In this document: piece by piece, positions 27,001 through 30,000 of the stretch
How positions within the stretch are numbered: position 1 is the stretch's first letter
Layout of the letters: the number at the start of each line of letters is the position of its first letter
Assembly: GCA_049517415.1 (NCBI GenBank)
Contig: JBEKSC010000023.1
Location: 1-44,914 of the forward strand
Reading direction: 5' to 3'
Source: Candidatus Bathyarchaeia archaeon
GTDB taxonomy: Archaea > Thermoproteota > Bathyarchaeia > 40CM-2-53-6
DNA: 44,914 bases
Position numbers: made by a program

Positions 27001-30000
27001 GGAGTGACGGTGGGAGAAGGAGCTGTTGTGGGCTCGCAGGCGATGGTGAATTCCGATGTTCCTGCCCGTACAATTTTCGTGGGTCTCCCAGCTAGGAAAT
27101 TGAGGGATGTACCCGACGATTGGCGGTCTTCACTTTTGCAAAGTTGAATCAATCCGCACTCAACAGAACGAATAAATATTGAACGCCGCATTCACGGGGC
27201 GCCACTCGTATGCGCATAACCCGATGAAAGCGGAGCTAAGCTGAGGTTGAAGATAAAATTCGCACTGGTTATCACAATCTTGGTTCTTGCTCTTGCGGTG
27301 GCCACACCCCTCCAATCAGCGAAGGCACAGACCAACCAGACCAATCTAGACATACACATCGTAAGAATAGTGGCAGTTGGAATCTGGGGAGTCACACATG
27401 TAACCGACATTTTCACCATTCATAACATTGGAACGGCCGCAGCATCCTCTCTTGATTTCGGGTTTTCACGCTTGTACCGAAACAACGTGTACTACGCCAG
27501 AGCAAAAGATAGCAAAGGAAAAGAGTTACTCCTGGACGCAGACGTAGGCCAGGGCACTGAAATCTACTGGATGCGGGCCCACTTCGCCCAAGAGTTGAGT
27601 CCTAACCAGACTTACGTTTTCACAGTACTATCGGTACTGAACGGTGTGTTGACTCATGCCCCCGGAGGTTACGAGTATAATTTCACCGCAGCCCCTATCC
27701 TTACTCAAGACGCTACTTACGCTAATGTGACGTTTATTGGGGCACCAGGATCCACATTCGTACTTCCCAGCCCGAGCCCATATCAGTCGTTCACTTATGA
27801 AGGCCAACCTGCCCTCTTCAAGCAATTCAAGCCTTGGAAGGCCAACTCCAATGACACCTTTTACGCGCCCTACAGAACCGTAGGAGAGTACATCGTCGAC
27901 CTCTCATCCGTCGAGCGCGATATCAATGTGGGAAACACTGGCGTCCTAAGCATAACGGACACCTACAACCTTCACAACATCGGCATAGAAATTACATCAA
28001 TCACCATTTCGCTCCCAGAAGGCGCATCGAATGTTATGGCCTACGATGTTGTGGGTGCAATGTGGGCTAACCCAGAAAACCCATCCCCACCATACCAAAT
28101 CACAATCTCGCCAAGGTACTCATCGGGCATTGGATCCGGTCAGAACTTTACGTTCACGTTGACCTACAATCTCCCGCAGTCACAGTACCTCAAACAACTG
28201 AAGTGGTGGGGAACGTACAACCTAACCATCGGCCTTCTCAACAACGCGGACGACTTCCTTTTCGATAGGGCAACTGTCAAACTGATAACGCCGAGCGGAG
28301 TGACCGTTACTGACGTTAAGACTCCTACTCAATCATCCGTGGCAAATCCAATTCAGTACGACCCAACAGGTCGGGCTTTTGCACTCCAAGGTGTCACCAA
28401 CCAGAACAACGTAACTGTTGGACTGACGCTGAACTATTTGCCCTTCTGGTCAGCGTACGCAGCGTTACCTTGGATTTTTGGCCTCGAACTTGTGATCGCA
28501 GCATTTGCCCTAGCCGTCGTGGTCAGACGAGGCCCAGAGCTCGCGGTACCGGTTCCTGTTGAGAAGCTTAGAGAATTCGTCGGCCTATATGACGAAAGGC
28601 TCGCACTGTCAAGGGAACTCGTTGTAATGGAAGAAGAAGTGGCTAGAGGCGGCCTGGTGAAGCATGAGTTTAGAAGACGGACGAAAGTCATGGAACTCAG
28701 GCTGGACGAGATTAACAAGTCGCTTATGGAAGTTAAAGCTGAGCTGCGTGGCGTGACCCCACGCTATGACGAGCTGATCCGTAGAATTGATAGAGCAGAA
28801 GCCGAGATACACGTATCACGGGCCAGCCTTAGCCAGGTAAGGTCCCAGTACAGATCGGGCAAAACGACTCGTGAAACCTACGACGCCATGCTTAATGATA
28901 TCACGAGACGTATCGACCGTGCAGAAGAAACTGTAGAGACGATCCTGATTACTTTACGAGAAGACGCAAGGTAAAACGCGGAAGCTATTAGAATCCGCCC
29001 ACAACCTCTACGCCGTTTCAGCTTGAAGGCGAAGCCCTAGTGTGATTAATGACCGATCAAATCCCAGTCTCAAAATTGCAAGAATGGCTGCGGAAATCCC
29101 TCGCATCCAGCCTCTCCCAAGCAGAACGTGAGCGCGACAAGCTGATGGCTGAGATAAAACGTGGATTGGATTCGATTACTGAATTCTGCAGTCAACTTTC
29201 ACGTAAGGCAGAACAGGACATGGAAACAAAGCGCGACAATAGAGCGGAGTATAGGGCAGCAAAAGCAGTGGCACGGTTGACGACCATAATCCCAGACATG
29301 TGCAAGGAGTTTAGTGTCCCTACAGAGAACGACTCTGCGAGCTTAAGAAACCTGCAACGCGAGACTTCGAAGCTCGCATCCGAGGCGGCACGAACTAGAG
29401 AGACCTGGCTTCGGCAGATTAGGCCTTACCATATTATCGACATGATGACGCTGGGCGGCAACATTGACAAGCTACGTAGGCTAGGCGACGAGCTCCACAA
29501 TTTCCTGATAGGGCGCGGGGCCTTGCTGCGTTCGCTGGAGGAGTTGAATGAGAAACTTGAGTCGCTAACAAAGTTGCAGGCCTTAAGAGATTCAGCAGCC
29601 CAGCAGAGACGGTCATTGGAAGAGAAACTTAGCGAAACGGAACGTGTCAACAACTCGTTGAAGAGTGAAGTCGCGGAAATCCGCCAGAACCCGAAAATCA
29701 AGGAGTACATGAAAATTAATGTCGAATTGAGGGCCTTGAGAAGCGAATTAATACGGACCGGGTTCAGCAGGCTCGGTAGGCCCTTCAAAAAGCTCGTCTC
29801 GATTTCAGAACGCGGGGACTACGCACTTCCAATTGAAGTAAGGGAAAGTGCAAAGGAGTACACGAAGAAGCCATTCGCCACTTTCCTCTCTGAAGAAAGC
29901 GGCTATCCTCGGCTGAAGGCAGTTATGTCTGCTCTGTCTGGGGCTGTTTCAAGCGGAAAACTGGCTCTCAAGCAACGGGAAGCTAAGAAAGTAATTGAGC

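Follow-up and report, generated by a model that had tools for sequence, protein, structure and literature searches.

The DNA analysed here, a stretch of 44,914 nucleotides from a Bathyarchaeia genome (hereafter the window), carries a gene whose product is a true, full-length archaeal orthologue of the oligosaccharyltransferase (OST) subunit Ost1/ribophorin I (RPN1), termed OST1 below. The host, as the first-pass annotation had proposed, is a non-Asgard archaeon, a Bathyarchaeia-type member of the Thermoproteota: its nearest Atlas clusters are Bathyarchaeota and its named relatives Bathyarchaeota/Bathyarchaeia. In the textbook view, archaeal N-glycosylation is performed by a single enzyme, AglB, and the helper subunits of OST are eukaryotic or Asgard innovations; that nearly all genomes of this order carry OST1, along with AglB and a DC2-like protein, lends support to the view that a multi-subunit enzyme, possibly one docked at the translocon, arose earlier.

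The OST1 gene and its product

The open reading frame and the parts of the encoded protein are as follows:

27247..28974, + strand: OST1/ribophorin I homologue gene (open reading frame of 575 aa, TTG start, stop included)
27247..27324, + strand: predicted signal peptide, residues 1-26, a hydrophobic core with cleavage read between AKA and Q (hydropathy windows 1-26 above 1.7)
27343..27882, + strand: membrane-distal beta-sandwich ectodomain, residues ~33-212 (AlphaFold2 strands E34-E210; Pfam profile positions 16-231)
27895..28434, + strand: membrane-proximal beta-sandwich ectodomain, residues ~217-396 (best Pfam stretch 249-363; AlphaFold2 model)
28459..28527, + strand: single transmembrane (TM) helix, residues ~405-427, followed by RRG (hydropathy; AlphaFold2 helix H407-425)
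28537..28971, + strand: cytosolic four-helix bundle of the Asgard OST1/metazoan RPN1 type, residues 431-575 (phmmer, domain model and Foldseek to 8WHN)

The gene is present as a single copy in its genome, and GGAG and GAGG motifs lie directly 5' of the TTG start. The Pfam profile PF04597 (Ribophorin_I), which had matches in none of 14 control genomes, recognised the 575-aa protein with 70.2 bits (cut-off 25; E 2.4e-19), with the best stretch at residues 249-363 and a second stretch corresponding to profile positions 16-231. A phmmer search of the PDB gave 8WHN_A (E 6.5e-6, residues 435-570 against 20-156), yeast Ost1 in 6C26 (region 288-397, E 0.0086) and human RPN1 in 6S7O_E (region 271-392, E 0.0096), reproducing exactly the values reported earlier, and two Promethearchaeota proteins, P0240 and P0258, matched a profile of close OST1 relatives with E-values of 1.7e-37 and 5.9e-35. 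The AlphaFold2 model, built from an alignment of 30 sequences, had a mean pLDDT of 80.3. When this model was searched against the PDB with Foldseek, the eight best chains were again all human or yeast RPN1/Ost1 (8b6l_O, E 1.2e-27, to 6c26_1, E 9.4e-18), as had been claimed for the earlier model; TM-scores of the best matches were 0.65-0.68 when normalised to the yeast Ost1 chain, and the ninth match, an integrin (E 2e-7), was weaker by ten orders of magnitude. The earlier assignment of the protein as a genuine Ost1/ribophorin I homologue with this full-length build is supported. The NCBIfam search returned no family for OST1 (nor for the OSTC-like protein described below), and the NCBI labels of the family members looked up were all 'hypothetical protein'.

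A signal-like N-terminus, a large extracytoplasmic part and a single TM helix, that is, all features of a type I build, were found. The cleavage site was read from the sequence, and N-terminal hydrophobic segments occur in nearly all homologues. Glycosylation sequons are retained in both ectodomains: N120, N145 and N160 of the membrane-distal domain in 27-30 of 30 relatives, and N325 and N388 of the membrane-proximal domain in 29/30 and 28/30. Judged from these sequence features, OST1 is a Sec-exported type I membrane protein that is probably N-glycosylated.

Conservation and structure of the cytosolic domain

Conservation of OST1 peaks in the cytosolic domain at each of three depths of comparison: mean pairwise identity was 81% against 54-58% for the ectodomains, and 53 against 34-37% and 32 against 23% at two further depths. 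Its alignment across both phyla is almost free of gaps. Modelled alone, it reached a pLDDT of 95.8, and Foldseek returned 8whn as the only match at E <= 0.001 (TM 0.85/0.87, rmsd 1.9 A, 139 columns). The entry 8WHN is the crystal structure of the corresponding domain of OST1 from a Lokiarchaeon, Ca. Prometheoarchaeum syntrophicum MK-D1; according to a 2024 JBC paper (PMC11417166), this domain and the human RPN1 domain, which is there termed the ribosome-interacting domain, both pulled down human ribosomes. Only the MK-D1 and human domains have been shown to bind, in both cases to human ribosomes; the Bathyarchaeia domain is linked to them by likeness in fold and by its high conservation. In the 38 aligned rows, K/R accounts for at least 80% of the residues in eight columns. 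The net charge of the window protein's domain is -1, compared with a mean of +9.8 for the 38 homologues, which makes a purely electrostatic contact with rRNA less obvious for this OST1. In Methanosuratincola homologues the tail extends only ~38 aa past the TM helix, and the bundle is therefore dispensable in some lineages.

Distribution across the Thermoproteota

With Pfam alone, the family was detected in 22/22 sampled genomes of the genus and in 165/401 of the class. A family-specific profile found OST1 in 101/105 genomes of the order (33/33 of the high-quality ones), in 56 of the 65 genomes of the class and, elsewhere in the phylum, in 123 of 336 genomes. Pfam-based counts underestimate OST1 several-fold, and the distribution given in the first-pass annotation was too low, even by Pfam. 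The same sensitive approach did not find OST1 in several large Thermoproteota families (f38, 0/61; f39, 0/17; f46, 0/23; f47, 0/13; f52, 0/16), which indicates that AglB has no general need of OST1.

The earlier premise that OST1 is confined to Asgard archaea among prokaryotes is contradicted by print and by database alike: PMC11417166 places OST1 and OST3/6 in eukaryotes and in archaea of both the TACK and Asgard groups, and the nearest Atlas clusters bear the automatic name 'Ribophorin I family protein' for Bathyarchaeota. The terms TACK, Bathyarchaeota, Thermoproteota and Crenarchaeota are absent from the supplement text of that paper as available, and its TACK statement could therefore not be traced to accessions. 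Because OST1 is near-universal in the order, common across the phylum and already in print, the find, though solid, is only modestly new; with the TACK occurrence already stated in one paper (PMC11417166), its value lies in the detail, namely the completeness and conservation of the protein, the undercount by Pfam, the vertical-looking inheritance and a sugar-acetyltransferase neighbour in two phyla. Newly added points are the cytosolic domain as the most conserved part, the QdtC/WlbB-type neighbour and an OSTC/DC2-like gene near aglB.

AglB, an OSTC-like protein and other OST subunits

The aglB gene lies on another contig (C8), in agreement with the earlier statement that it is not adjacent to OST1. 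AglB was found in 40/41 genomes of the order. In the protein of this genome a double sequon, N-x-T-x-N-x-T, comes after WWDYG, and a comparison of 27 AglBs of the order showed no variation at D564, N565, T567, N569 and T571; by these motifs the protein appears eukaryote-like. The same contig encodes a further candidate subunit:

Contig C8, L008:2280-2756, - strand: OSTC/DC2-like gene, 158 aa, 3.1 kb from aglB (PDB sequence matches)

The PDB matches of this protein were to OSTC/DC2 only (4e-6 and 7.2e-5; at 4e-6, residues 37-157 against 13-144 of 149), and its TM part scored 20.3 bits with Pfam OST3_OST6, below the cut-off of 27. It was found in 40/41 genomes of the order. A DC2/OSTC-type protein is hence encoded near the STT3/AglB gene, an OST-A-like trait, and the 'two-subunit OST' suggested earlier has to be revised, as the genome encodes this protein as well.

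Ost5 sits between Ost1 and Stt3 in eukaryotes. Pfam searches of this genome for Ost4, Ost5/TMEM258, OST48/Wbp1, DAD1/Ost2 and ribophorin II/Swp1 gave no match at E <= 0.1, a weak negative for short TM proteins, and the Ost4 and Ribophorin_II profiles had no match in any control genome either; nor was there a match at E <= 0.1 to TRAP alpha and beta in this genome. In this genome the OST3_OST6 profile further gave thioredoxin-type matches at its positions 10-109; because the same search had matches in 11/14 control genomes, they were discounted as unspecific.

Gene neighbourhood

One gene stands out beside OST1:

26380..27147, + strand: hexapeptide-repeat (LbH) acyltransferase gene, directly 5' of OST1 on the same strand with a 100-bp gap (Pfam Hexapep)

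Its best PDB matches were QdtC (1.2e-28) and WlbB (4.4e-19), and one copy was found in this genome at E <= 1e-10. Of 40 freshly sampled loci, 18 (9/20 Asgard and 9/20 own-class loci) have a homologue no more than 2.2 kb away from OST1; in both phyla, then, OST1 has the gene for a QdtC/WlbB-type sugar N-acetyltransferase as a conserved neighbour. Inherited gene order, and not functional coupling, could explain this arrangement; the neighbour nonetheless provides a testable lead for OST1 function. The downstream 416-aa gene (29049-30299) was rejected as a candidate partner: it is kept beside OST1 within the genus only and has no family match above cut-off.

Proposed role of OST1

We consider it reasonably likely that OST1 is a partner of AglB/STT3 whose bundle holds the ribosome at SecYEG and so couples N-glycosylation to translocation. 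In company with the OSTC/DC2-like protein, OST1 would assist the eukaryote-like AglB/STT3 at the cytoplasmic membrane without itself being catalytic; its two beta-sandwich domains, which sit outside the cell, would flank the external catalytic domain of AglB; and the highly conserved cytosolic bundle would hold a cytoplasmic partner that is likewise conserved, the translating ribosome at SecYEG being the likeliest candidate. Such a hold would couple N-glycosylation to translocation in the manner of the metazoan OST-A complex. We counted for this mechanism that OST1 (101/105), AglB (40/41) and the OSTC-like protein (40/41) are all core genes of the order, OST1 in the same way as its proposed partners, and that the sugar N-acetyltransferase neighbour is a link to glycan synthesis. 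Counted against it were the location of OST1 on a different contig from aglB, the large Thermoproteota families in which OST1 was not found and the lack of an Ost5 match in the searches described above, as was the ability of archaeal AglB enzymes to work in vitro on their own.

A bolder extension, which we regard as rather doubtful, is that AglB, OST1 and a DC2-like subunit form a ribosome/SecYEG-docked, OST-A-like co-translational glycosylation unit that existed already in the common ancestor of Thermoproteota and Asgard archaea and is tied genetically to the QdtC/WlbB-type N-acetyltransferase in both phyla. If this were true, neither eukaryotes nor Asgard archaea would have invented translocon-coupled N-glycosylation, and the Bathyarchaeia, in which all three genes are near-universal, would be the place to study its simplest natural form.

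The protein might instead be a true Ost1 homologue that acts without AglB, as a ribosome/translocon receptor anchored in the membrane or an extracytoplasmic holdase that receives nascent secreted chains at SecYEG, with the link to OST acquired later in the Asgard/eukaryote line. We hold this to be unlikely, notwithstanding that the most conserved part of OST1 is the cytosolic domain, which matches the ribosome-binding domain of 8WHN (PMC11417166), that OST1 is never adjacent to aglB here and that AglB occurs throughout the order regardless of Pfam-detectable OST1. The gene that is conserved next to OST1 codes for a nucleotide-sugar N-acetyltransferase rather than for a Sec or SRP component, nearly all genomes of the order have OST1, and likewise AglB and the OSTC-like protein, and in every matching solved structure the fold belongs to an OST complex. 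Re-use of an OST1 homologue as a glycan-binding or envelope-anchoring cell-surface protein that takes part neither in translocation nor in glycan transfer appears improbable: it would suit a large ectodomain with many sequons, the fast evolution of OST1 ectodomains and the existence of variants of ~390-440 aa that lack the outer domain, but leaves unexplained a 145-aa cytosolic bundle of 81% identity that is common to Asgard and metazoan OST1.

Inheritance of OST1

The phylogeny of OST1 was inferred from 66 rows, 30 of them Asgard, as an unrooted tree without eukaryotic Ost1. All 30 Asgard rows fell on one side of a single branch (bootstrap 100, SH-aLRT 100, recovered in 100% of 200 bootstrap trees), and the window protein lay within a clade that contains no genome from outside its order (support 100/99). 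Given the 100/100 branch that splits off the Asgard rows, the window OST1 is not a recent Asgard import, a possibility that the first-pass annotation had itself raised and against which the 66-row tree speaks. An import of this kind, which would leave the gene silent on a TACK ancestry of OST1, is very improbable: Bathyarchaeia and Asgard archaea do share sediment habitats, and a midpoint-rooted quick tree placed the own-class rows nearer to Asgard than those of other Thermoproteota classes (SH-aLRT 93), yet in addition to both branches of the 66-row tree there is the occurrence of OST1 in 101/105 genomes of the order and 56/65 of the class, and the G+C content around the gene is flat (0.50-0.51). 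Inheritance within the Thermoproteota looks vertical; the tree, being unrooted, is compatible with an ancient transfer between stem lineages.

Comparison with known OST1 and ribophorin I proteins

The OST1 of MK-D1 (607 aa; 8WHN; PMC11417166) has the same build from signal peptide to cytosolic four-helix bundle, and its C-terminal domain resembles that of the window protein in both sequence (6.5e-6) and fold (TM 0.85/0.87, rmsd 1.9 A). The two differ in that the Asgard proteins belong to another phylum and to the opposite side of the 100/100 branch, C-domain identity to MK-D1/Asgard OST1 is ~20-28%, and the window protein is shorter (575 aa against ~600-750 aa in Asgard loci). With P0240 as the single Asgard query, the search for related loci yielded two named Asgard loci.

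Human RPN1 in OST-A/OST-B (8B6L, 6S7O, 8PN9, 6S7T) is a structural match over the full length, TM helix and bundle included (E 1.2e-27 to 1.5e-19, 451-613 columns), whereas identity is 14-16% and the direct sequence match has an E-value of 0.0096; it acts in an ER complex of at least eight subunits, compared with only AglB and the OSTC-like protein found alongside OST1 in the Bathyarchaeia genome. Yeast Ost1 (6EZN, 6C26, 7OCI, 8AGB), likewise a Pfam Ribophorin_I protein, superposes on the window protein with its two luminal beta-sandwich domains and TM helix, but its solved chain of 476 aa (alignment of 443-457 columns) is without the long cytosolic bundle.

A likeness to ribophorin I arising by chance or convergence of generic beta-sandwich domains and a coiled coil is already close to refuted, for despite the weak direct sequence E-values to eukaryotic Ost1 (0.0086 and 0.0096), the commonness of beta-sandwich folds and the integrins further down the Foldseek list, the Pfam score is far above cut-off, profile E-values to Asgard OST1 reach 1e-37 and 6e-35, the full-length domain order is the same, TM against yeast Ost1 is 0.65-0.68, the first unrelated chain trails by ten orders of magnitude, and the C-terminal domain matches 8WHN specifically.

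The short-tailed OST1 forms of Methanosuratincola are closer to the yeast Ost1 state. The OST1 proteins of other Thermoproteota (Bathyarchaeia, Methanomethylicia, Culexarchaeia, Caldarchaeales) belong to the same family and share its build, the window protein being one more member.

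Sequence and predicted structure of the OST1 homologue

The open reading frame of the OST1 gene starts at a TTG, runs for 575 codons and is immediately preceded on its 5' side by GGAG and GAGG motifs. It lies among the following features of the window:

23119-26021, minus strand: gcvP1/gcvP2 (glycine cleavage)
Directly upstream of OST1 with a 100-bp gap, plus strand: hexapeptide-repeat protein, 255 aa
27247-28974, plus strand: OST1, ribophorin I/Ost1 homologue
29049-30299, plus strand: 416-aa protein, directly downstream of OST1

Pfam Ribophorin_I matched the protein with 70.2 bits (cut-off 25; E 2.4e-19), the best stretch covering residues 249-363 and a weaker second stretch corresponding to the N-terminal half of the profile. 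Searches of the PDB chains with phmmer returned 8WHN, the crystal structure of the OST1 cytosolic domain of the Lokiarchaeon Ca. Prometheoarchaeum syntrophicum MK-D1 (6.5e-6), yeast Ost1 (0.0086) and human RPN1 (0.0096). A profile built from 30 close relatives matched two NCBI-named Promethearchaeota proteins (1.7e-37 and 5.9e-35), and at the sequence level the link to the eukaryotic proteins is weak by direct comparison but is bridged via Asgard proteins. Hydropathy analysis revealed a signal-like segment at residues 1-26 and a transmembrane (TM) segment at about 405-427, followed by RRG. The ectodomain contains five sequons, each kept in 27-30 of 30 relatives, so that OST1 itself is probably N-glycosylated.

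The AF2 model of the full-length protein (30 sequences; mean pLDDT 80.3, pTM 0.58) comprised two β-sandwich domains (strands within 34-210 and 217-396), a helix at 407-425 and four long helices at 438-574. OST1 is exported, has type I topology and adopts the Ost1 fold. All eight best Foldseek chains in the PDB were RPN1/Ost1 (8b6l_O, 1.2e-27, to 6c26_1, 9.4e-18), the ninth match being an integrin (2e-7). The figures of the first-pass annotation (open frame, Pfam, phmmer, AF2, Foldseek and hydropathy) were all reproduced or nearly so, and its reading of homology was correct: the protein is a true Ost1/ribophorin I homologue.

When the cytosolic domain (the bundle, residues 431-575) was modelled separately with 38 sequences from both Thermoproteota and Asgard archaea (pLDDT 95.8), its sole PDB match at E≤0.001 was 8WHN (TM 0.85/0.87, rmsd 1.9 Å over 139 columns). 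The Thermoproteota-Asgard alignment of this domain was nearly gap-free, and in eight of its columns Lys or Arg made up at least 80% of the residues over the two phyla; among close relatives its mean pairwise identity was 81% compared with 54-58% for the ectodomains, and it was the most conserved part at two deeper levels too. In almost every archaeal homologue examined, the TM segment is followed by 141-165 residues; the clearest exception is a 423-aa Methanosuratincola form (locus L056), which keeps the ectodomain and has a cytosolic tail of 38 aa. OST1 also occurs in shorter versions of about 390-440 aa (among them representative proteins P0150, P0160 and P0184; loci L063, L065, L076, L135, L136 and L145), which matched the second ectodomain, TM segment and bundle only, the outer domain being missing. 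The second structural neighbour of the bundle model (window 28537-28971) was the fission-yeast Rex1BD four-helix bundle (8j0h, TM 0.71-0.78), and Pfam DNA_repr_REX1B occurs on 20% of the members of one eukaryotic RPN1 cluster in the Atlas; the RPN1 tail and REX1B domains may be distantly related.

Distribution of OST1 and earlier reports

The first-pass annotation regarded OST1 as an Asgard-only protein among archaea, which is wrong, since a sentence in PMC11417166 already places OST1 and OST3/6 in eukaryotes, TACK and Asgard archaea; the supplementary text of that paper contains no TACK accessions. The window OST1 adds to a kind already on record. A 2016 study looking for homologues of the non-catalytic subunits found none in prokaryotes (PMC4973528), and Eme et al. 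2023 continue to present Ost1 and Ost3 as known from earlier reports on Asgard archaea (PMC10307638). P. syntrophicum MK-D1 is said to be without Ost1 in PMC11284389, in disagreement with PMC11417166, whose account includes expression and crystallisation of a domain of the MK-D1 OST1 (WP_147663064.1). Our literature search found no paper devoted to OST1 of Bathyarchaeia or other TACK archaea.

The nearest Atlas clusters were from Bathyarchaeota (129 and 131 members, both auto-named 'Ribophorin I family protein'), followed by Thermoproteota and Nitrososphaerota. With Pfam alone, the family was detected in all 22 sampled genomes of the genus, 165/401 of the class sample, 69/401 of the phylum sample (41 of the 69 outside the class) and 132/251 Asgard genomes. 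Pfam misses genuine members, including the homologue of one Asgard genome that is 42% identical to a named OST1. A more sensitive profile from 52 diverse family members found OST1 in 101/105 genomes of the order (33/33 of those of high quality), the four negative genomes being 66-84% complete, and, at E≤1e-15, in 179/401 genomes of the phylum sample (56/65 in the class and 123/336 outside it). The earlier counts of 15/22 (genus), 22/104 (order) and 69/717 (class) were therefore strong underestimates. Nameable carriers outside the class were Methanosuratincola, other Methanomethylicia, Culexmicrobium and Calditenuaceae/Aigarchaeota, all labelled 'hypothetical protein' at NCBI; in the phylum sample the same profile found no OST1 in some large Thermoproteota families (0/61, 0/17, 0/23, 0/13 and 0/16).

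Two homologues of 58-62% identity (P0033 and P0092) carry the NCBI name 'Candidatus Acidoferrales bacterium' in an otherwise archaeal family, probably from a mislabelled bin. OST1 matches from three genomes of one genus of the class (g76) contain one in-frame TAG each (G148:C5:2833-4005, G160:C5:98237-99409 and G202:C3:17576-18694), and single in-frame stops occurred in matches from genomes G086 and G166 (TGA) and G154 (TAA); these could mean that the stop codons are read through or recoded, that the gene is split, or that the assembly is in error.

Phylogeny of OST1

A tree of 66 archaeal rows (30 Asgard, 18 from the class including the window protein, and 18 from other Thermoproteota classes) was computed with IQ-TREE (LG+C20, careful search) and left unrooted, without eukaryotes; its Asgard rows were the best Pfam scorers and form a non-random sample. 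Seven loci were left out on purpose, namely L011 (a duplicate of L009), L012, L026, L062, L066 and L078 (truncated) and L061 (weak partial), and L060 was absent as it gave no profile match. One branch set apart all Asgard rows (ultrafast bootstrap 100, SH-aLRT 100, present in 100% of 200 bootstrap trees), the clade of the window protein consisted exclusively of genomes of its own order (support 100/99), and G+C was flat along the gene. The window OST1 is real and complete, and its inheritance looks vertical. In a midpoint-rooted quick tree the class lay nearer to Asgard than did the other Thermoproteota classes (SH-aLRT 93), and an ancient, stem-level exchange is possible. Recent import from crown Asgard into this lineage is rejected by the Asgard branch, the own-order clade and the flat G+C together.

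Genomic neighbourhood of OST1

The best solved relatives of the hexapeptide-repeat protein were nucleotide-amino-sugar N-acetyltransferases (QdtC, 1.2e-28; 7S43, 1.7e-20; WxcM-like, 1.7e-19; WlbB, 4.4e-19), and no NCBIfam model reached its cut-off against it. An initial survey placed a homologue beside OST1 in 22/73 loci, many of them short-flanked. A fresh sample of loci with at least 4 kb per side was then picked from match tables, blind to the neighbouring genes. Of these, 9/20 Asgard loci (two directly upstream on the same strand, four divergent, one convergent and two downstream) and 9/20 loci of the class (six directly upstream, three upstream at a distance of about 2 kb) had a homologue (E≤1e-10) no farther than 2.2 kb from OST1. 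The pairing occurs in both phyla, in counts that are inflated by relatedness of the genomes. Since the genome studied has a single acetyltransferase copy at E≤1e-10, adjacency to OST1 by chance would have a probability of roughly 0.2%. The 416-aa protein matched no family over a cut-off, and its position next to OST1 is conserved within the genus only.

The gcvP1/gcvP2 genes adjoin the acetyltransferase-OST1 pair. They recur in the vicinity of OST1 elsewhere, namely in several loci of Methanomethylicia/Culexarchaeia, in some of the class and in a single Asgard locus.

AglB, the OSTC/DC2-like protein and a proposed role

OST1 is not adjacent to aglB, as the first-pass annotation had observed, the latter lying on another contig of the genome (C8; L008 gives coordinates on a stretch of it):

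L008:2280-2756, minus strand: OSTC/DC2-like gene, 158-aa membrane protein, 3.1 kb upstream of aglB and on the opposite strand
L008:3034-4188: gcvT, between the OSTC-like gene and aglB

AglB, a protein of 924 aa present in 40/41 genomes of the order, matched STT3 with 125.5 bits and also has Ig-like domains. Its WWDYG motif (546-550) precedes a double sequon, N-x-T-x-N-x-T, in which the N and T residues do not vary among 27 AglBs of the order; PMC8993221 describes this double sequon as common to eukaryotic Stt3 and Asgard and TACK AglB. The sole PDB sequence matches of the 158-aa protein were to OSTC/DC2 of human and dog (4e-6, with residues 37-157 aligned to 13-144 of 149, and 7.2e-5), and Pfam OST3_OST6 matched its TM part under the cut-off. 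Its gene was likewise found in 40/41 genomes of the order, in 19 of these on the same contig as aglB at 3-10 kb. Weak tests for TRAP alpha/beta, Ost4, Ost5, OST48, DAD1 and ribophorin II gave no match in this genome. With AglB, OST1 and the OSTC/DC2-like protein all encoded in this genome, the candidate complex would have at least three parts, and not the two previously suggested.

A function of OST1 as a partner of AglB is plausible. We propose that OST1 would be placed alongside both AglB and the DC2-like protein, and that its bundle would hold the ribosome at SecYEG, whereby translocation might be coupled to glycosylation as in OST-A. The ribosome step is suggested because the cytosolic domains of MK-D1 OST1 and human RPN1 pulled down human ribosomes, according to the experiment described in PMC11417166, and because DC2 is presented in PMC5674889 as the OST-A-specific translocon adaptor. 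Against a ribosome or AglB role count the net charge of the bundle, which is -1 in the window copy compared with a family mean of +9.8, the large Thermoproteota families without OST1 and the lineages whose OST1 is without the bundle.
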